Assembly: GCA_902500205.1 (NCBI GenBank)
Contig: GCA_902500205.1_4868.1
Length of the DNA stretch: 64,000 nt
Origin: Escherichia coli
GTDB lineage: Bacteria; Pseudomonadota; Gammaproteobacteria; Enterobacterales; Enterobacteriaceae
Direction: 5' to 3' (one strand)
This document shows positions 39,288 through 60,366 of this stretch, in pieces. A program made the translations under genes and the position numbers. The notes beneath the pieces are model-generated. The model made no database searches. It saw only the letters and a program-made list of their open reading frames with translations, and was not told the origin of the DNA. Positions within the stretch are counted from its first letter, which is position 1. Each line of letters begins with the position of its first letter.

Positions 39288-39292
39288 GTCAC

Positions 39293-39345
39293 TAGGCGTA
39301 CTCTCTTCGGGGAGTACGCCAATCTTATTTTTTTTATTTTTTTGG
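39293..39345 (+). terminator. intrinsic terminator
   Basis: Hairpin GGCGTACTC-TCTTCGG-GGAGTACGCC followed by TTATTTTTTTTATTTTTTTGG. Confidence 0.7.
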
Positions 39346-39770
39346 TTACTTTTTAACCAACCGGTTAAAGGGGTCTGGGAAGCATCAGAAAACGATTAGG
39401 TGGTATCGACGTAGGGTAGCTCGTTTTTGGCAGTTTATCGTTTTCTAGGGTCTGTTACGTGCGTTTTAGAGGGGGTTATGTATCGAGACAGAGAATTTAT
39501 TTTTGTCGGGGCGAGGAAATTCAGGGAATGGGGATTCAGGATTGTATGTTTTTTAACCAGTTATTAAAAACGCTCTAGAAAGCGCTAGAACGAGATTTAA
39601 CTCAGACCCAGTACACTTGGGTTCCCTATACCGGAAAATCGCGCCAGCGGGCCGCTGAGAGCGCGAGAGAGCCATTCCCGTTTCGGTTCCGAGGTGACGG
39701 TCGCGGCCGGCGACGACGATCACACGTTGGGTAGCACTTCGTGCCATGTCTGGGTGAAAACTGGATCGTT

Positions 39771-39796
39771 CTGTAACCGACACACACTGTCGGTTA
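39771..39796. other. perfect 10-bp stem-loop GTAACCGACA-CACAC-TGTCGGTTAC in ORF-free region
   Basis: Read directly; no T-run downstream. Confidence 0.4.
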
Positions 39797-39905
39797 CTTA
39801 CGAGTTCTTTGGGTTGTTTAATTCACTCTAAAATCCCCCTTAGGGGATAATTTAATCTAATTCTCAAAATTTCTTTTTAAAACAATCACTTAGATTGTTT
39901 TTTAG

Positions 39906-40150
39906 ATTGATCCTGTGGATCGGGTCGAAGACCCTTTCCTTATACGCGTGCGCGTGCGCGCACCCGTATCCTCCAGGATCTTTTAAAATATATAATAATA
40001 TTAAATATAATAATACCTTTAGGTATTATATTTAATTATTATAATTATTTATATAAATAAATATATTAATATATTAAGATCTTAAAACGCGTGCGGGCGC
40101 GCGCGTGATCCTTATTAAGAGATCGTGATCGGACGGAAGACCGAGATCGG
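39906..40150. other. origin-like dyad element: AT-rich core flanked by alternating-GC boxes and 8 GATC sites
   Basis: ACGCGTGCGCGTGCGCGCAC (39944-39963) and CGCGTGCGGGCGCGCGCGTG (40088-40107) flank a 96-bp core of about 95% AT with dyad centre near 40019; 8 GATC in 240 bp. Confidence 0.45.
39981..40076. repeat. AT-rich low-complexity core (ATA/TAA repeats) with central inverted repeat
   Basis: Arms ATAATACC / GGTATTAT around TTTA centre; bounded by GATCTTTTAAAA and AAGATCTTAAAA. Confidence 0.6.
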
Positions 40151-40398: not shown

Positions 40399-40489
40399 GA
40401 TTACGTGAGTTTGTTGTTATATGCGAATAGCGATTGACCGCGCCAATGGTCCAATCACTTTTTAAACCCTGCACGCTAGGGCTCCAAGT

Positions 40490-40519
40490 CCTGGGATTGA
40501 TACCCAGGACGCTTTTTCG
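40490..40519 (+). terminator. terminator-like hairpin plus T-run inside ORF-free region
   Basis: TCCTGGG-ATTGATA-CCCAGGA followed by CGCTTTTTCG. Confidence 0.35.
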
Positions 40520-41056
40520 AAAATACCTGCCGTGGTGTCTTCGACAAAGCGCAATCTAACACTGCGTGATTTATTATGTTCTGGAAAACTTTCGCCGTGG
40601 AACAGAACCGGTGAGCGTCGGCGGGGATTCCGACAATCACCACCCATTCAGGTACTCGGTAGATAACCGACCTGCCGACGGTGCTACGTCGGGCGTAGTT
40701 CGGTTTGCGAGAGTGTCGAGAAAGTCGACTGCGCACCCATGACAAAATCCGAGTTGACCGTGGCAGCGCCAGAGGACTGGGCAGCGGAGAGACGTCGTTG
40801 AACTTACCTCCGATAGTTATCGCTGATTCCGCTCTGGCGTCGGGCCAAAACTGATTCGAATTCGGCGTTGCGTCGAAAAGGGGTCTGCGTGTAGAACCGC
40901 AGACTTGGGGGATAACTCCAAAGTGGGGTGATCGGATCTTGACGGCTCGGAATAGACGAGAGGGGTGGGTACTCCCGTTGAGAAACGACGGTACCTGGCT
41001 GATTAAAATTTACAGATTCTGCGTGAGGTATGATAAACCAAACGGAGAATTAAACC

Positions 41057-41632: not shown

Positions 41633-42120
41633 CGACGATAGCGTTCGACGGAAAAGTCTTAGCTGCTGACGGTCAGCTGACCCGCGGGTCGAATATCTGC
41701 AACCTGAACACCCAGAAGTTATTCATCTGCCCTTCTGACGAGGAATGGTGGATTACTGGTGAACGGATTGTGGCGTTCGGAGTAAGCGGTGACATCACAG
41801 GACAGTTGGCCCTGCTGGAAACGGTCCGCTTGAGACCCGGCTACAAGGGATTAACACAAAGCTCGCAGTTACCTACGAAGATGGATTTTACTTTCCTGAT
41901 GCTTTTGGCCTCAGGAAAAGCGATAGTCGGCGGAAAACGTGAAGACGACGTGACGTTGTGGTGGAGTGAAGCCACACCACCTCTGGCAACCGGAAGCGGT
42001 TACGAGTATGCGTTGGGTGCGATGAAGATGGGCGCGAATGCGGTTCGTGCTGTTGAGATTGCGTCCGAATGCGATATCTACACCGGTGGTGAGATTAGCA
42101 CTTACGAATTACGGAGGTGA
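41629..42120 (+). CDS. HslV/proteasome beta-like Ntn-hydrolase threonine peptidase (163 aa)
   Basis: Begins MTTIAFDG (Thr directly after initiator Met); ADGQLTRG, ATGSGYEYALGAM and AVEIASECDIYTGG align with HslV MTTIVSV, GDGQATLG, AIGSGGPYAQAA, ALDIAGDICIYTNH; GAGGAGG RBS 8 nt upstream. Confidence 0.8.
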   Translation: MTTIAFDGKVLAADGQLTRGSNICNLNTQKLFICPSDEEWWITGERIVAFGVSGDITGQLALLETVRLRPGYKGLTQSSQLPTKMDFTFLMLLASGKAIVGGKREDDVTLWWSEATPPLATGSGYEYALGAMKMGANAVRAVEIASECDIYTGGEISTYELRR

Positions 42121-42212
42121 ATCATGCGGGAGTCAGAAGCACGCAAGCTTGACCCCATCAATCGCCTGCGATAACGGGGTAGCGCATCCGTATAAACACG
42201 TTCAAGAATTCT

Positions 42213-42288
42213 AGGAAAGTGACGCAATTGGTAGCGTACCGGTCTCCAAAACCGGCTGTTTAGAGTTCGAGTCTCTACTTTCCTGCCA
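42213..42288 (+). tRNA. tRNA-Trp (anticodon CCA) with encoded 3-prime CCA
   Basis: Hand-folded cloverleaf: 7-bp acceptor AGGAAAG/CTTTCCT, D-arm ACGC/GCGT, anticodon stem CCGGT/ACCGG with loop CTCCAAA, T-arm TAGAG-TTCGAGT-CTCTA, discriminator G then CCA. Confidence 0.85.
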
Positions 42289-42354
42289 CATTTAGCCAAC
42301 AAGGCCATGATTCAAAGCAGAATGACACCGAATGTCTAACTGCGGAGAATAATC

Positions 42355-42597
42355 ATGAACTTGTATTTGCTAGAACGAACTGACGATATCGGGTATGATG
42401 AATTTGATTCCATAATCGTGGCGGCTCCTACGGAGCAAGCCGCGTGTGCAATTCCTCCCGACCGTGGTCATTGGATGGACTGCCGCTGGTTACCGAAAGA
42501 GCGCTGGGATGAAGGGCTTACCCTGACCGTTACCCTTATCGGCACTACGCACTATCCTGCTGGGACCGTCGTTCATGAATCGTTCAATGCTGGCTAA
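42355..42597 (+). CDS. small protein (80 aa), single-copy paralog of the repeat domain in the 191-aa protein
   Basis: Same leader and start (GGAGAAT..ATGAACTTGTAT) as gene at 41057; N-terminus MNLYLLERTDD...IIVAAPTEQAA parallels MNLYRVGFYRNE...VLAENEEQAK. Confidence 0.55.
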   Translation: MNLYLLERTDDIGYDEFDSIIVAAPTEQAACAIPPDRGHWMDCRWLPKERWDEGLTLTVTLIGTTHYPAGTVVHESFNAG

Positions 42598-42600
42598 ACA

Positions 42601-43630
42601 GTGGGCTTCGGCCCACTAACCCTATTCGAGCCATGATACTTACTCAGATTGTGCGGGTTGATGTCCCGCATGAGCCGGTAGCAGCTCAGACCTACGGTAA
42701 ACCGATAAATCCGTAGCAGCCAGGTACACAAAGCACCAGGTCGCTTGTACAGGATGCTGGGTATCTGACCGGTCATAACCTCATTCGATACGAGACACGT
42801 TTATGCATGAAATATTCCAGTACATCAGGATGTTGATTTCAAACGTCCGGTTCTGGGTATTCAATCATGTTTGGTTTACAGGCGATGGGTTTTCCCGCAA
42901 GGGCCCCACTTACAGACTGGCGTCTCCACGACAACCGTCCCTAGGGGACAGGCAAGCACCGGCCCATTAAGCCGCCATGCTACGCCTGTAAATCCACAAT
43001 CTGATAACCGAATGGGATTGAGTTCCCAGTGTTAGGGTGACTGTGTGTCACCGTAGGCGCGGTACCTCATACGGCCGGTACGCCACGAATGTACGTGATA
43101 GCAGGTGGTGCTTGGAGACGCTAAGACCTGACCTTACGGCCAGGCTCAGAAGAAGAAGTTCATCACCCGCATTCAGAAATGAATTTAGGTTAATTATTGG
43201 AAGTGGTGAAATCGTTTACGTGATAACTTAGTAGTATGCAACGAACAATACCAGAGTGACTTTACGAGGTTACTGTGGTATATGTCGGTGCGCCGGGCAA
43301 CGTGTTGCCGCAGATAAGCCCGAGGGAGCTGAATGCACTAACACACGCCGGGATGCACCGGCACCTTACAATGGGAGCGCTGTCACCATCAGTGATGACA
43401 GGAGTGAAGGATTCGTACCTCACTCGACTGGGCGGAAGCCTGGGCGTTCCCCCATCTTCACATCATGGCCGGCTTGCCGGTTCAACGTAGACGTCTCGTA
43501 AGAGATTTCCAGTCAGGCAACTGATAACACACCTAAGCGTCGACCTTGGACGTATGGTGTCTGGTTAAGTCCCCCGAAACGGAAACCAGTAGGGGTGTGG
43601 TACGTTGAGTGTAACTATCATGATGCCATG
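42601..43630 (+). ncRNA. candidate large structured noncoding RNA region (family unknown)
   Basis: About 1 kb with no convincing ORF; many local hairpins (GTGGGC-TTCG-GCCCAC, GTCCC-TAG-GGGAC, GGTGAC-TGTGT-GTCACC) and a long-range complementary pair TTACAGGCG / CGCCTGTAA about 100 nt apart. Confidence 0.3.
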
Positions 43631-43636
43631 AACAAT

Positions 43637-43706
43637 GGCTTTGTAGCTCAGGTAGGTAGAGCAGCCTCTTCGAGGAAGGTCGCCGGTTCGAGACCGGTCA
43701 AAGCAA
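43637..43706 (+). tRNA. degenerate tRNA-like element (possible pseudo-tRNA)
   Basis: Canonical D-arm (TAGCTCAGGTAGGTAGAGCA) and T-arm (CCGG-TTCGAGA-CCGG) but mismatched anticodon stem, 1-nt variable loop and G1-A72 mismatch. Confidence 0.3.
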
Positions 43707-43707
43707 G

Positions 43708-43782
43708 AGCAGTGAAGTTAGAGGAATTAACACCCGACTCATAATCGGATATTTCGCGGGTTCGAATCCCTGCCACTTGCTC
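43708..43782 (+). tRNA. degenerate tRNA-like element with CAT anticodon loop (Met/Ile-like), two 1-nt bulges
   Basis: Anticodon arm CCGA-CTCATAA-TCGG and T-loop TTCGAAT present; acceptor and T stems each need a bulged T; no clean CCA. Confidence 0.3.
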
Positions 43783-44161
43783 GCCCCATTTGTGTTATCC
43801 TTATCCCGAAGGCATTCGAAATAAGACGCGTATCCACACACGGGTCAAGGGTAACACGAACCACTTCCGCGGTCACCGTGTCCATTGCCGCCTACCTGCA
43901 TGGGCTGTCCTCCGACACGGTGACTTCGGGCCAACTTACAGGCCAGGGCTGTTTGGGTTTTTCTTACGCATCCATCCAGAGCCACCTCGCGCCCTAGTCT
44001 GTATACCCCTTTTCTGTTCCTGGTTTGCCAACTAAATCAATTAAGCCTGGTGCGTTGCCCTGGGAACAGAAAAACTTATTCGGTTACACACCGAACCCAC
44101 CCACGAGGGATATGTCGTGGACCACCAATAGAAGCAGCAATAGTAGTAAGAAGGAAGCAAC

Positions 44162-44983
44162 ATGTTTACAGTTAAACGTGTAATTGATGGTGACCGCATT
44201 ATTACCGAGCATGAAAAGGTTCGTATCGGTGACCGTAAGTCTCGTGTATTCCGCGAGGCATTAAAAATGCTCGAGAACGAGCGCTTCGACATCGTTGTCG
44301 ATGATGAAAAGTTAGCCCTTAATCCGGGGTTAAAACGCGTTGCCCCTGATGTGCCTGATCCGAACACCATGCATTTGTCTGACTACTGCAGCTGGTCGCA
44401 CAGATTATATAAAAGTCAGGTTTATGCACACACGTATTTGCGGCAGCTTTTCCCCAACCTTATTATCCCCGATTTGGAAACGGTCGAGGTGTTTAACTGC
44501 AACGCACGCGAGTTTATTAGCTACGTGCTAGATAATAAGGGCAATGCTATCTTGGTACTGGACACAAATTCCAGTATACCTGATGCTGTGGCTAGCATAC
44601 GTGGTGAAATCGTCGGTTACGGTACTCCCCCAGAGAAATTAGGCTGGTACAAACCATCTCCTGATAGCGACATGGCGATCATTGTCTACACTCAGGAAGA
44701 ACTGCAACAAGTCGAATTAGAGCCTGGTCCATCTATCGAGTTCACTGATGTCCAGGAGCAAACGCAGTGGGTTAACGGTGAGTGCGTTGTTACTGTTTTA
44801 AAAGGCGCTCGCCCTGGCGACCGGTCAGTCGATGAACTGATTGGCGCAATGTGCATCGAAGAAGAATCTGGGTACGATCCTGATAACCAGATCAGTGCCG
44901 GTGCGTTGTACGAACTGTTTTATAAAGGCGACGAAGTCTACGTGGTTAACTCTCACGGTAAGACTACCGACGCCCTTCGCTGA
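44162..44983 (+). CDS. hypothetical protein (273 aa)
   Basis: ATG with AAGGAAG upstream. Confidence 0.75.
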   Translation: MFTVKRVIDGDRIITEHEKVRIGDRKSRVFREALKMLENERFDIVVDDEKLALNPGLKRVAPDVPDPNTMHLSDYCSWSHRLYKSQVYAHTYLRQLFPNLIIPDLETVEVFNCNAREFISYVLDNKGNAILVLDTNSSIPDAVASIRGEIVGYGTPPEKLGWYKPSPDSDMAIIVYTQEELQQVELEPGPSIEFTDVQEQTQWVNGECVVTVLKGARPGDRSVDELIGAMCIEEESGYDPDNQISAGALYELFYKGDEVYVVNSHGKTTDALR

Positions 44984-45154: not shown

Positions 45155-45206
45155 ATGAGAAAGCCTCATCTGAATTCTCCCAACTCGACTATAAAAGGTA
45201 TGCATC

Positions 45207-46157
45207 ATGTACAGACCAAGTAATCCTAGCGCTATCGAAGGATTAAACCAGGATGGCTTCAGCCTCGCAGAAGCAACCCGCATTCGACCTTTCTTACCTC
45301 GCAGATTCTTCCCTTTCGGTTCGTTATACAGAACGAACTTTGACGCCTGGGAAGCGATACGTGCTGTAAAAGATGCACTACAGTACAAGAACTTCGAATT
45401 CCGATTTGTGTTCAAATGGGGCAACGGCGAATTGCTCCACTACTTCGGATTCCAACAGAACGAGTTTATTGAGTATACCTCACCTACGTACCACACCAGG
45501 TTCTTAAGTATCGAATTCGTTCGCCATTTCGGCGATGCACTCTTTACGGAACGTGCGGCAGATGAAAACCATGGACGTAGGCTGGTGTTAACGAACGGTG
45601 GATTACGCATCAAGATGAATCGTTTACGGGAAGCGTATAACCAGCTCATCAATCCTGAACCGGTAATGTTTCCAACAGTCGCAGATTTGAACGTTACACC
45701 ACTCCAGCTACCTGTGGATATAGACAAACCGATCCTGGCAATCAGAGCACTGCAGGCAGGTTACGCAAACTGGTATAAAGGGCACAGTCTCCCGAACACC
45801 AGATTGAACATCGAACCGTATGAGTTGTGTTTATTCTTAACTCTACGCAAGCGGTTTGAGCCAGATAACTTAGACTTACGTTATCTGGCTAAAACAGATA
45901 GCGGTAGTTACTACCCAACGACCTGGATGCTAGCGGCTGTACTACCCGGCGGTGAAATTATCGGTAACCCTGTCACCGATGTTCAACAGTTACCATCACC
46001 GTTAGCACCACCGAAGGATTCAATCTATCCATACGCTTCGTGGTACGCGAGTAGTATTGGCGTGAGGTGGTTGATGTTACACGTTCCCGAAGAGGTCTAT
46101 AATTTATTCCCGCATGAGCAATGGCTCCGTGCGTATGAAATTCGGTTTGGTTGGTAG
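45207..46157 (+). CDS. hypothetical protein (316 aa)
   Basis: ATG with AAAAGG upstream. Confidence 0.75.
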   Translation: MYRPSNPSAIEGLNQDGFSLAEATRIRPFLPRRFFPFGSLYRTNFDAWEAIRAVKDALQYKNFEFRFVFKWGNGELLHYFGFQQNEFIEYTSPTYHTRFLSIEFVRHFGDALFTERAADENHGRRLVLTNGGLRIKMNRLREAYNQLINPEPVMFPTVADLNVTPLQLPVDIDKPILAIRALQAGYANWYKGHSLPNTRLNIEPYELCLFLTLRKRFEPDNLDLRYLAKTDSGSYYPTTWMLAAVLPGGEIIGNPVTDVQQLPSPLAPPKDSIYPYASWYASSIGVRWLMLHVPEEVYNLFPHEQWLRAYEIRFGW

Positions 46158-58414: not shown

Positions 58415-59923
58415 GTGAGAAAGGTACCAAAATTCTACGGAATATCCGGCCGGTTGGTTAGTCAGGATAACTATTTGTCCGATTTGCAAATAGAAGCTGC
58501 TGCCAAAGGTATTAAACCACCCACTATTATTAACGATGTCGCCGTTAACGGGGATGCGATCGAGGTTGCTGAACTTATCGATCGCATGGTACAGAACAGA
58601 ATCGTTGACGAAGAACTGAACTCTGCACCGATTTGTAGTTTGGATTGTCCGGCACCGATCGCGCATCGTTACAATCTCGGTTGTAAGTGTCCGACGTGTG
58701 GCTATGTTGTAACTGAACATCGAATTGAATCCGATGTCTGGTTACGTGCACCCGATGAAATGGGTAACTTCGTCAACCCACGATTCTGGGCAATGTTCAA
58801 TGCTTTCTTTAATAGCAAGTTGAAGAAGTTTGAACGTAACAAGGTCACTATCGAACGCGGTAATGACTTGATGATGTGGATGATTGACCCGTATTACCGT
58901 ATAGAAGAACCAGACGGTAAACGCGCACATGCTGTGAAACGTGTATTGGAAGAACATGGTTTCGTTCGTGGCTTGCGCAATCTGGTTGATAACCACGTTA
59001 GTATCTTTAACATCCTTACCACGCCAGAAGCCTGGAAGGAAATCTTCGCACCTAATCGGCATAACGCCGCTGAAGGTGAACGCTTACGTTTACAATGGAA
59101 GGAGCTATTCGAAACGCAACGCCATGCATTCTTCCCAAGACACTTACCGCTAATCTCCTCTAAGCTTATCGTTACTGAGGAAGGTCGTCGTGGTGTCATG
59201 GTAGACCCAGTGTTCACGGGTGCTATCGATGCGGTGAAAAATATCGCGTTACTTTATACGCGGCGTAAAGCGATCGAACCACGTTTTCTGATTAGTCGCG
59301 CTTTGAAAGCCAACCGTCAGTTAACGTACTTCCACATGGACTTCCGTCGTGAGTCTATGGAAGGTAAACCGGGTGACTATCGTGCGAAATTGGGTTCTAC
59401 CCATATCCCATTCGGTGGTCGTGCAACCATCTCACCTATCTCAGAACCACACGATGCCTGGAAGTTAAAAGCACCATGGCGTTGGATGGTTGGGTTGATG
59501 TCGACCCACATCGAGAACAAACTGCTACGACGGGGTTATTCGTCACGGCAATGTGAACGTATCGTTGCAAAAGCGGCAATGCAGTATGACCCGCTTGTAG
59601 ATGAAATCTTTAAAGAACTGATTCGTGAATCCCCAGGCGGTCTTGGGATCATGGTCATACCGCTACGTAACCCAACGCTGGTACAGTTGTCTATTCAAAC
59701 GCTGTACATCGATGAAGTTGTTACCGATGTTAACCAGTGTTCGCTGCGTATCTCTGACCGTGTGATCAAGATGGCTAACGGTTCGAAAAGAGCCCCATCG
59801 GACGGGAAACCTCTGATGCGTATTCTCCTGAAATGCTGGGAAACCCTAAAGCGTATCTACCAGAAATGGGGACGAAAGTCTGAAACAACAGATACGATGG
59901 CCTACGCTAAACAATACTGCTAA
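58415..59923 (+). CDS. RNAP beta-prime-like N-terminal subunit, 5-prime exon (frame reads on into candidate intron before stopping)
   Basis: Zinc-ribbon pattern CSLDCPAPIAHRYNLGCKCPTCG near residue 73-95; LRNPTLVQLSIQTLY resembles beta-prime NRAPTLHRLGIQAF; NADFDGD absent from this ORF. Confidence 0.75.
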   Translation: MRKVPKFYGISGRLVSQDNYLSDLQIEAAAKGIKPPTIINDVAVNGDAIEVAELIDRMVQNRIVDEELNSAPICSLDCPAPIAHRYNLGCKCPTCGYVVTEHRIESDVWLRAPDEMGNFVNPRFWAMFNAFFNSKLKKFERNKVTIERGNDLMMWMIDPYYRIEEPDGKRAHAVKRVLEEHGFVRGLRNLVDNHVSIFNILTTPEAWKEIFAPNRHNAAEGERLRLQWKELFETQRHAFFPRHLPLISSKLIVTEEGRRGVMVDPVFTGAIDAVKNIALLYTRRKAIEPRFLISRALKANRQLTYFHMDFRRESMEGKPGDYRAKLGSTHIPFGGRATISPISEPHDAWKLKAPWRWMVGLMSTHIENKLLRRGYSSRQCERIVAKAAMQYDPLVDEIFKELIRESPGGLGIMVIPLRNPTLVQLSIQTLYIDEVVTDVNQCSLRISDRVIKMANGSKRAPSDGKPLMRILLKCWETLKRIYQKWGRKSETTDTMAYAKQYC

Positions 59924-60126
59924 CGGTTGTGATAATGGGTAATCAGCAGCGAAGCCTCGTGAGAGGAACGTTCAACGACTATCGCTGAAATGCGAGTAGG
60001 GGTCCCAGTGGACTTCGAAGTGGGAGAACACCTAAGGCGATAGCTATGGTGAAGATATAGTCTGTGCCTTATCGAGAGATAAGGAGGGTGTCTTAGCACA
60101 CCTGCTGTATACGGAAACGGTATACG
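59762..60126 (+). mobile_element. candidate group I self-splicing intron (no internal ORF); boundaries approximate
   Basis: Elements resembling group I Q, R and S in order: AATCAGCAGC (59941), GTTCAACGACTATC (59970), GAAGATATAGTC (60051); GACTAT/ATAGTC can pair as P7; GNRA-capped hairpin CCTTATC-GAGA-GATAAGG (60067-60084). Confidence 0.6.
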
Positions 60127-60366
60127 GTGGACAAACAGGATTTCGATGGCGACCAGTTCCAGGTACGTTTGCCAGTCGATGAAACTGAGATGAAGTTGGC
60201 GCTCCAATTCCGTCCAGATAACGGCTTTATGTCTTCTACTGATGTGGACCGCGTAGAACACGGCATGGTTTTACATAACGAGCTAATCAGTATGCAGAAC
60301 CAGTTCCTTATTGAAGCAGATGAGGATGATGAAGAAGGCATTCCGTTGGAAGCGGTGATGGGCTAA
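60127..60366 (+). CDS. 3-prime exon of the beta-prime-like gene, carrying the catalytic DFDGD motif
   Basis: VDKQDFDGDQFQVRLP matches NADFDGDQMAVHVP; no ATG or credible RBS of its own (track start is GTG). Confidence 0.65.
   Translation: MDKQDFDGDQFQVRLPVDETEMKLALQFRPDNGFMSSTDVDRVEHGMVLHNELISMQNQFLIEADEDDEEGIPLEAVMG

Follow-up and report, generated by a model that had tools for sequence, protein, structure and literature searches.

We analysed a 64,000-nucleotide (nt) stretch of DNA, hereafter the window (assembly GCA_902500205.1, filed as Escherichia coli), with a focus on a 1.5-kilobase (kb) block at 42598-44160 in which an earlier note, made from the sequence alone, had proposed a large folded RNA and tRNA-like remnants. 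Comparison with related phages revealed that the block consists of several elements rather than one, and that about one third of it is occupied by a structured RNA of ~530 nt on the plus strand (~42650-43175). Strong compensatory covariation across four phage genera makes it very likely that this conserved multi-domain RNA is real; the folded RNA of the earlier note was therefore upheld for this third of the block and not for its whole length. A small open reading frame (ORF) of 55 codons lies inside the RNA, and the remains of a tRNA gene array appear to lie downstream of it.

By its sequence, the window is part of a Seoulvirus genome, that of a jumbo phage resembling SPN3US. Over the 2.2 kb around the block, identity to the SPN3US, SPFM and SPLA phages was 96-98%, and ~35 close relatives of SPN3US (SPFM, SPLA, SEGD1, Proteus phage 7 and two Escherichia phages) matched at the same identity; SPN3US and these relatives are Seoulvirus genomes of ~240 kb. 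With the block as query, blastn found no similar sequence among 5,426 genomes of E. coli or in a set of 72,556 plasmids, and an origin from the host or a plasmid was rejected on this ground. Formation of a phage nucleus has been reported for SPN3US, a Salmonella phage, and for the related Erwinia phage Asesino (PMC13282480).

To assess base pairing, 86 pairs in 13 helices, curated from RNAalifold calls and from helices read off the alignments, were scored in 18 non-redundant sequences. The controls, in which the 3′ partners were slid by 1-3 columns or the columns were shuffled 500 times, leave some phylogenetic effect among the ~5 clades represented. The proposed pairs were paired in 91.7% of cases compared to 30-44% in the slid controls, compensatory double changes were found in 35 pairs compared to 9-14, and double-change cells numbered 180 compared to 17-29. 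None of the 500 column shuffles attained the observed value on any of five measures, and a 16-sequence version of the test was likewise supportive. Helices H3, H4, H5, H12, H14 and H15 (located below) each underwent several independent changes despite the clade structure, and H14 covaries inside the SPN3US species too (A-U, G-C and G·U). In the 5′ domain, RNAalifold predicted 26 pairs, 18 of them with compensatory double substitutions; one stem, for instance, changes from CUACGG/CCGUAG to CUAUCG/CGAUAG, CCAGUG/CGCUGG, ACGUGG/CCACGU or CGCAAG/CUUGCG. Hairpins capped by GNRA loops were also swapped with compensation, from CCC-GCAA-GGG to CUC-GUGA-GAG and from AGGAC-GAGA-GUCCU to AGGGC-GCAA-GCCCU. 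Furthermore, the proposed pairs contained 128 G·U cells and 18 A·C cells, and therefore the pairing takes place in RNA of the plus strand, neither in its complement nor in duplex DNA. A covariance model of the 5′ domain, R1, scored 112 bits at 42651-42779 and did not exceed 10 bits elsewhere in the window; true relatives outside its training set scored 97-115 bits each, and chance loci gave no match.

The evidence for structure is comparative, and the two features that had first drawn attention are by themselves barely above chance. The richness in hairpins reported in the earlier note proved to be a mild enrichment of perfect hairpins of 5 base pairs (bp) in 42598-43597 (21, compared to 11.7 ± 4.2 in dinucleotide shuffles, 3 of 200 of which reached 21). 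Perfect 6-bp hairpins numbered 7 (3.2 ± 2.1 in shuffles; 13 of 200), and the rest of the window holds a mean of 5.4 of them per kb, about the density of the block. The long-range 9-bp pair is present and actually extends over 10 bp; on its own it is unremarkable, the block containing 12 inverted repeats of at least 9 nt, while chance would by our estimate give ~5 perfect ones (positions squared / 2 × 4^-9).

The structured RNA was found in Seoulvirus, Machinavirus, Erskinevirus, Wellingtonvirus and uncultivated relatives. The loci compared came from Machinavirus, Erskinevirus, Wellingtonvirus, two divergent Seoulviruses and uncultivated members (L024, L026, L030, L052, L053 and L054 in our numbering), which were added by scanning IMG/VR and metagenomes for patterns and by searching with the protein. 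True members in the pattern scans were L017, L024, L026-L028, L030, L037, L040, L042, L044-L047 and L050-L052; L016, L019/L022, L031-L036, L038, L039, L041, L043, L048 and L049 were discarded as chance matches with neither the other conserved motifs nor an R1 match, and L016 and L019/L022 were coding-like on inspection. A tblastn search with the neighbouring HslV-like peptidase returned the same jumbo-phage genera and unrelated small phages and reached no further genera; phage Kwan is of the same species as Wellington. In 25 Erwinia jumbo phages, sensitive BLAST picked up a portion of the block with 70-79% identity, and these counterparts bear no annotation or a stray hypothetical protein. In the alignments, the conserved stretch runs from ~42640 to ~43190 and exceeds the 225-nt BLAST core.

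The genomic position of the RNA is also conserved. All fetched relative loci contain a syntenic array of 5-15 tRNA genes (Tyr, Glu, Gln, Asp, Ile, Ser, Met, His, Asn and others), and the RNA always lies just upstream of it on the same strand. In Asesino, phiEaH2 and L026 the first tRNA gene (tRNA-Gly or tRNA-Leu) starts only 5-8 nt past the 3′ strand of the RNA. Within the SPN3US species the RNA is nearly invariant, whereas the flanking former array carries large indels.

Anatomy of the RNA and its embedded reading frame

The RNA is described here from 5′ to 3′, all helices being on the plus strand. Its 5′ domain (42650-42772) comprises five helices around a junction: the hairpin H1 (42650-57/42665-72); the closing helix H2 (42675-79/42768-72), which encloses the junction; H3 (42692-97/42711-16), with a conserved loop of 11-13 nt; and the stacked H4 and H5 (42722-27/42761-66 and 42736-41/42755-60), with the conserved internal loop ACAAAGCA. 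H3 and H4 were 100% paired across the 18 sequences, with up to six pair types per position. The loop of H1, UUGAUGU, is unlike a T loop. Together with the first stem base it reads GAUGUC, GAUAUC or GGUAUC according to clade, sequences that are self-complementary if wobbles are allowed. Symmetric kissing loops hold the oligomers of GOLLD, ROOL and OLE RNAs together (bioRxiv 10.1101/2024.12.08.627333), and by this analogy the H1 loop may be a speculative hint of oligomerisation; in two members the sequence is GAUAAC, a point that weakens the kissing-loop idea.

The middle region evolves fast and makes up the N-terminal half of the ORF. It is followed by a central sub-domain (42875-42992) closed by the long-range helix of 10 bp, TTTACAGGCG with CGCCTGTAAA (42875-84/42983-92). 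This helix is kept in 11 of the 18 sequences (Seoulvirus and Machinavirus) without compensatory change, and in Erskinevirus and Wellingtonvirus it is down to ~4-6 pairs in a shifted register. Inside the sub-domain are three hairpins, CCC-GCAA-GGG with its GNRA loop (42894-903), AGAC-UGGC-GUCU (42914-25) and GUCCC-UAG-GGGAC (42937-49), whose sequences vary by clade yet which persist as hairpins. They are followed by the nearly invariant H10 (42955-62/42972-81), in which compensatory changes occurred from A-U to U-A in L054 and from G-C to A-U in L024.

The 3′ domain (42995-43175) includes a conserved block, ACAAUCUGA, and a purine run, AGAAGAAGAAG. It contains the invariant hairpin H11 (43013-17/43024-28), H12 (43036-41/43047-52), the long closing helix H14 (43101-13/43156-70, extending to ~43174) and the inner H15 (43121-32/43138-49); H12 and H14 were 96-97% paired and H15 ~93%, with compensatory changes. 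A variable hairpin of 29 nt, GGCG(CGG)UACC-UCAUACGGCC-GGUACGCC (43056-43084), is near-identical in one member of each of five sub-clades and is replaced by unrelated hairpins in sister phages, a distribution that points to recombinational swapping of what would be a peripheral RNA module. A likeness of this hairpin to the L17 leader, the best Rfam match below threshold (E = 3.7, 22 bits against a gathering score of 34.9), was rejected, being absent in relatives with the same hairpin.

An all-against-all column scan yielded a candidate pseudoknot between AUUCA at 42859-63, in the ORF, and the H11 loop UGAGU at 43019-43023 (plus strand), with 97.8% of cells paired and one pair being U-A in 9 and C-G in 7 sequences. 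It is suggestive only, as the scan also yields chance stacks of like length. Other candidate contacts were discarded. The 5′ arm of a second perfect 10-bp pair (42644-53/42995-43004) is restricted to Seoulvirus and so is no feature of the family, and pairings of the H3 loop with the H15 loop, of ACAAUCUGA with UCAGA and of CUCCA with UGGAG were, by eye, lost across clades.

The embedded ORF (MHEIFQYIRMLISNVRFWVFNHVWFTGDG...RQAPAH*; 42803-42970, plus strand) starts with a conserved ATG in all members, is 55-64 codons long, is open in 18 of 18 genomes and always ends at a UAA in the loop of H10 (42968-70 in the window), after ...APAH, ...APER or ...APDR; its 3′ half overlaps the RNA hairpins. 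The earlier note had seen no convincing ORF in the block. This stands insofar as the longest ORF on either strand of 42598-44160 is at most 81 amino acids and the next coding sequence is 44162-44983; what it missed is this short frame, open in all relatives. The ORF of the window matched PHROG 26199 with E = 1.5e-4 over residues 7-33, its Machinavirus ortholog with 2.8e-45 and other orthologs with 4.2e-7, 0.011 and 4.6e-6. This family (Machinavirus gp9-like hypothetical protein) has no functional annotation and its members are annotated as ordinary small proteins, with the RNA structure around them unremarked; the product of the ORF had no Pfam match. Among 5.8 billion proteins the ORF was called in 7 clusters, all of this phage clade, and it was left unannotated in SPN3US.

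Substitution patterns differ between the two halves of the frame. In the N-terminal half, the proportion of synonymous differences (pS) was 0.4-0.75 compared to 0.1-0.28 for nonsynonymous differences (pN) in three independent clades, with pN/pS of ~0.3-0.45, and the entropy by codon position was 1.25/0.78/1.27, whereas the flanking RNA domains showed no periodicity. In the C-terminal half pS was about equal to pN and both were low, which is what constraint at the nucleotide (RNA) level predicts. The larger alignment gaps inside the ORF (3, 6 and 12 nt) were all multiples of three, and one single-base gap, in Erskinevirus, fell within the poorly aligned N-terminal region. AlphaFold, given the single sequence, modelled residues 2-26 as a helix with a predicted local distance difference test score of ~90 and the remainder as disordered; the N-terminal 26 residues form a predicted amphipathic helix. 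Judged by this evolutionary signature, the N-terminal half is probably translated, and the C-terminal half appears to be kept open yet shaped by the RNA. A small hairpin just 5′ of the AUG holds the sole GAG that resembles a Shine-Dalgarno sequence.

We also found promoter-like motifs around the RNA. A TATG(CA) motif overlaps the ATG of the ORF (42802-42805, plus strand); TATATATGC occurs at the equivalent place in Machinavirus, and in Seoulvirus and Machinavirus the ATG forms part of a TATGCA or TATATATGC sequence. A second TATG(CA) motif, AGTAGTATGCAACG, lies downstream of the RNA (43235-43238, plus strand), and in Machinavirus and Wellingtonvirus TATATATGC follows the RNA and precedes the tRNA array or a ParB-like ORF. 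The late promoter of the phiKZ non-virion RNA polymerase is TATG, with the G as +1 (PMC4666361), and by analogy the motifs at 42802 and 43235 may be promoters. Scans for sigma-70 promoters and intrinsic terminators gave results at or below chance and are unsuited to a phage with its own polymerases. The motif (G/T)TATGC(A/G) recurs in intergenic DNA, at 42802, 43235, 45199, 49086 and 60291. The copy at 45199 is 8 nt before the start codon at 45207 and would leave a leader of ~4 nt, which hints at near-leaderless late mRNAs.

The tRNA array and the rest of the window

Upstream of the block, the adjacent tRNA-Trp(CCA) gene named in the earlier note was confirmed at 42213-42288 (plus strand) by ARAGORN, by an Rfam tRNA score of 63.6 bits and by the annotation of relatives, in most of which it lies upstream of the structured RNA and separate from the main tRNA array. 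A small ORF (42355-42597, plus strand) lies between this gene and the block, and right after its stop stands a UUCG-capped hairpin, AGUGGGC-UUCG-GCCCACU (42600-42617, plus strand), which is identical in pEa29 and SPAsTU. The hairpin lacks a U run on its 3′ side and was not called by the intrinsic terminator scan; it is possibly a transcript-end or processing hairpin.

Beyond the RNA and a spacer that carries the second TATG motif (43190-43366), the block is in all likelihood a decayed tRNA array, as comparison with the arrays kept in relatives indicates. Two tRNA-like remnants, as anticipated in the earlier note, were located here. The first (43637-43706, plus strand; Rfam tRNA 36.4 bits, gathering score 29) is a tRNA-like gene without an anticodon: its acceptor, D and T arms are intact, and in place of an anticodon loop it has a tight CCUC-UUC-GAGG hairpin, four of the five anticodon loop positions being deleted in the covariance-model alignment. 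It is 'tRNA-OTHER' in the SPN3US annotation and was aligned with SPAsTU, Asesino and Parshik. In relatives the orthologous position (L007 3807-3927; L012 4586-4682; L004 3981-4095) holds a 'tRNA-Ile(aat)' of 97-121 nt or an insert of ~50 nt in the anticodon region, and these long orthologs could be intron-containing or otherwise non-canonical tRNA-like genes. The second remnant (43709-43781, plus strand) is a degenerate tRNA(CAU) of 23.8 bits, under the gathering score, whose T arm has one base too many and whose acceptor stem is imperfect. Its anticodon arm (CAU) is invariant across genera, and its orthologs are annotated as tRNA-Ile2/Met(cat), the one in pEa29 as tRNA-Ile2(cat); the gene might still retain some tRNA function. 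Neither remnant was called by ARAGORN.

A tRNA-like small RNA of 87 nt (43368-43454, plus strand) precedes them. Its 7-bp closing stem is followed by CCA, and of its three arms one has a GGAA loop; neither the tRNA covariance model nor ARAGORN gave a match. It is 90-95% identical in the SPAsTU and Asesino arrays (L004 3850-3936; L007 3538-3621), fills the gap between tRNA-Ile and tRNA-His in Asesino, and shows a compensatory change from GGGAGCG/CGUUCCC to GGGAACA/UGUUCCC. We observed that it is better conserved than the surrounding tRNAs. In SPN3US itself it is deleted: pairwise BLAST, together with rows of 84-88% coverage in the BLAST searches for relatives, revealed a segment of 257 nt (43375-43631) that is present in the window and in Proteus phage 7 and missing from SPN3US, a pattern that shows what appears to be ongoing erosion of the former array. 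The large RNA has been kept almost unchanged while the array has mostly been lost, and therefore it would not solely serve the phage's own tRNAs.

The array region of relatives contains further ORFs and insertions. In pEa29 a coding sequence of 178 amino acids lies between tRNAs (L001 2867-3403), a faint HNH_3 ORF follows the structured RNA at L053 3535-4056, and Salmonella phage 1252 (PP695294.1 195520-197686) has an insertion of ~600 bp in the block. A possible cause of the turnover here is the activity of mobile endonuclease genes. The block ends with the leader of the coding sequence 44162-44983 (43789-44160, plus strand), which contains two long hairpins formed by inverted repeats (43867-82/43914-29 and 44010-20/44063-73, plus strand); the region 43867-44073 aligns with a stretch of pEa29 that is 3′ of its tRNA-Asn.

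Elsewhere in the window, a group I intron (59763-60084, plus strand) lies between the ORFs 58415-59923 and 60127-60366. The product of the latter begins ...DKQDFDGDQFQV, the DFDGD catalytic motif of RNA polymerase beta′, and the intron appears to split a phage RNA polymerase beta′-like gene just before the active site. The region 39930-40110 contains ~120 nt of pure A/T sequence that includes palindromes and has alternating G/C runs on both sides (ACGCGTGCGCGTGCGCGCAC ... ACGCGTGCGGGCGCGCGCGTG). A number of the genomes deposited for this phage group have their first base here or close by (SPN3US at 39873, Proteus phage 7 at 40010, JN03 and Lh1B at 40072), and the region is a candidate replication origin or genome terminus. 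Two more stretches without long ORFs are found upstream of the block (39288-40114 and 40475-41056), with no Rfam match; two segments within them, 39933-40057 and 40857-40965, recur with 77-80% conservation in jumbo phages of Erwinia and are unannotated there.

Relation to known RNAs and competing explanations

When 42100-44300 and six relatives were scanned with cmscan against all 4227 families of Rfam 15 at E ≤ 10, no family was found over the structured RNA, the tRNA covariance model included, and nothing in 42598-43600 attained an Rfam gathering score. Rfam did recover the group I intron elsewhere in the window at 69 bits, which served as a positive control. ARAGORN detected no transfer-messenger RNA (tmRNA) in the window, and no Rfam tmRNA match was obtained in the block or the six relatives. 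The earlier note had been unable to assign a family and had proposed a covariance-model scan and a comparative alignment as checks; the former agreed with it, and the latter gave clear compensatory covariation. A long frameshifted gene across the region, which the note had named as a refutation, was not found either. In the literature searched, an RNA at this locus was undescribed; a catalogue of candidate phage RNAs (PMC10690425; 10,006 entries) was compared by its main text, and the structured RNA might be among its entries.

By these comparisons the RNA is apparently a family yet uncatalogued, the closest analogues being GOLLD and ROOL, without membership in either. At ~530 nt it is shorter than ROOL (~580 nt). 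It differs from both in giving no match to either covariance model at E ≤ 10, in residing in jumbo phages of Enterobacterales, which have other hosts, and in holding a conserved ORF with a coding signature; we know of no conserved coding ORF in GOLLD or ROOL. Both are large phage-encoded RNAs, typically found by tRNA islands, whose function is unsolved; in GOLLD, which exceeds 800 nt, the 3′ region is conserved, the 5′ region less so, and tRNAs are sometimes present in the linker, an arrangement to which the structured RNA bears some likeness (bioRxiv 10.1101/2024.12.08.627333). The resemblance to both lies in a length of several hundred nt, many helices supported by covariation, a phage genome and a place beside tRNA genes, the last being a typical setting that is insufficient as a criterion.

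Two other precedents are relevant. The 'species 1' and 'species 2' RNAs of phage T4 are stable non-tRNA RNAs of its tRNA cluster, encoded on the same strand, with function unsolved, and are matured from a common precursor by tRNA-processing enzymes. This pattern fits the 87-nt RNA at 43368-43454 and the large RNA that abuts the first tRNA in relatives. The T4 RNAs are ~120-140 nt long and without an ORF; processing of the structured RNA would be by analogy, and no Rfam family matched it. Dual-function RNAs, such as tmRNA, SgrS/SgrT, RNAIII/hld and the hok-type structured mRNAs, likewise combine conserved structure and a short frame in one molecule, the frame being partly constrained by RNA pairing. 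The structured RNA differs from tmRNA in having neither a tRNA-like terminal domain nor a tag-type ORF, its ORF having an ATG of its own, and it differs from Hok in that the peptide is amphipathic and basic rather than a hydrophobic membrane toxin.

In the best explanation, which we consider probable, the block once headed an array of tRNA genes in a nucleus-forming jumbo phage of the SPN3US type, with the conserved structured RNA and its ORF as the core. A 3′ region of ~300 nt of hairpins, closed by long helices, overlaps the rest of the ORF. The RNA would be transcribed together with the tRNAs or just before them, and its 3′ end would arise from an RNase P cut at the first tRNA or from the closing helix where no tRNA follows. 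The stable RNA would then accumulate and act as RNA, its conserved loops and junctions being the putative working surface, with the translation or tRNA machinery as the most likely target, a role also suspected of GOLLD and ROOL. Any transcript with the AUG may in addition give a small helical, mildly basic peptide, which could act alone or bind RNA. An action of the RNA on translation or tRNA metabolism is a functional guess by analogy, and one that we regard as rather doubtful.

Several points weigh against this explanation. The family is, by the sequences at hand, confined to one phage clade, and some part of the apparent covariation reflects few evolutionary events, because of this confinement and the low effective sequence number (1.95 for R1). 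Folding energies of single sequences are unremarkable, the z-scores of the minimum free energy (-0.76 in the 5′ domain, -2.08 in the 3′ part) not being significant, and the long-range helix has no compensatory support and loses its register in 7 of the 18 sequences. No clear Shine-Dalgarno sequence can be read before the ATG of the ORF. Use of the TATG motif at this ATG would yield a transcript devoid of the AUG and would place the 5′ domain on a separate upstream RNA. The ends, stability and translation of the transcript are presumed from sequence, and the tie to translation is drawn from the neighbourhood of the RNA.

The strongest competing explanation, which we nevertheless regard as unlikely, is that of a structured mRNA, in which a peptide of 55-63 amino acids would carry all function, its translation being controlled by the 5′ domain as a leader of the riboswitch-like or protein-binding kind, with the 3′ part as a stabilising untranslated region or a terminator and the neighbouring tRNAs incidental. 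It would account for an ORF that is open in every member, with pN below pS and conserved second codon positions in its N-terminal half, for the confidently predicted N-terminal helix, and for the calls made by gene finders in several genomes. The 5′ domain is also aptamer-like in its size, its junction and its conserved unpaired nucleotides, and the hairpin with the only GAG resembling a ribosome-binding site stands directly before the AUG. However, the most conserved sequence lies outside the protein-like part, and the C-terminal half of the frame and ~200 nt after the stop are constrained at the nucleotide level. The GNRA hairpins, the invariant hairpin and the closing helix of 13-15 bp far exceed what a terminator needs, no riboswitch or leader family matched, the ribosome-binding signals are poor, and the possible TATG start site would drop the AUG. 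Furthermore, nucleus-forming phages separate transcription from translation (PMC13282480), and co-transcriptional attenuation is therefore unlikely, translational control still being possible.

Three further explanations are each very improbable. Genomic debris, in which the hairpins would be relics of tRNA arms among decayed tRNA genes and spacer, would fit the erosion of the array here (two degenerate tRNA-like genes and the 257-nt indel relative to SPN3US) and a hairpin count near chance. It is contradicted for 42650-43175, where the tRNA covariance model had no match at E ≤ 10, where pairing is kept by compensatory changes across four genera, and where the RNA is almost invariant within the SPN3US species next to an indel-rich array and occurs also in phages with full arrays; it still applies to 43455-43631 and possibly to 43637-43706. 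An element acting as DNA (an origin or packaging site, for example, or an array bound by proteins close to the end of the genome) is brought to mind by the AT-rich palindrome with GC repeats (39930-40110) ~2.6 kb away, where several deposited genomes start. The excess of G·U over A·C is instead that of plus-strand RNA; multi-helix junctions, conserved loops and GNRA caps are RNA features, and strand and orientation match the tRNA genes in all genomes. Finally, a missed known class (GOLLD, ROOL, tmRNA, RNase P RNA or a group I/II intron) or a frameshifted gene is suggested by the existence of large tRNA-adjacent phage RNAs (bioRxiv 10.1101/2024.12.08.627333) and by an ORF within a structured RNA that recalls tmRNA and intron ORFs, and is opposed by the empty Rfam scan that did find the group I intron, by the lack of any tmRNA call or terminal tRNA-like domain around an ORF with its own ATG, by the failure of BLAST in E. 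coli genomes and plasmids, and by the absence of a long ORF in any relative, indels outside the small ORF not being multiples of three.

The structured RNA is of wider interest in several respects. Its recognition corrects the annotation of more than 60 deposited genomes, in which the region is blank or filled with spurious 'hypothetical proteins' on either strand. The overlap of the ORF with the RNA structure is a compact natural case of one sequence under two constraints. Structured RNAs longer than 500 nt with solid covariation are rare, and the phage examples, GOLLD and ROOL, still lack a known function. The host phages of this RNA are cultivable and genetically studied (SPN3US on Salmonella, Asesino and relatives on Erwinia), and knockdown by antisense oligomers has been described for phage functional genomics (PMC12571901); the function of a giant phage RNA beside tRNA genes is therefore directly testable. 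It is possible, though we would not count on it, that the RNA represents a new large ornate class specific to one clade of nucleus-forming jumbo phages, an RNA machine or scaffold acting, in analogy to GOLLD and ROOL, on the host translation or tRNA apparatus and truly bifunctional as mRNA and effector. If so, it may form an oligomer or particle with its own helical peptide, translation through the 3′ half would remodel its fold, and its retention past the decay of the tRNA genes would imply a role independent of the phage's own tRNAs.

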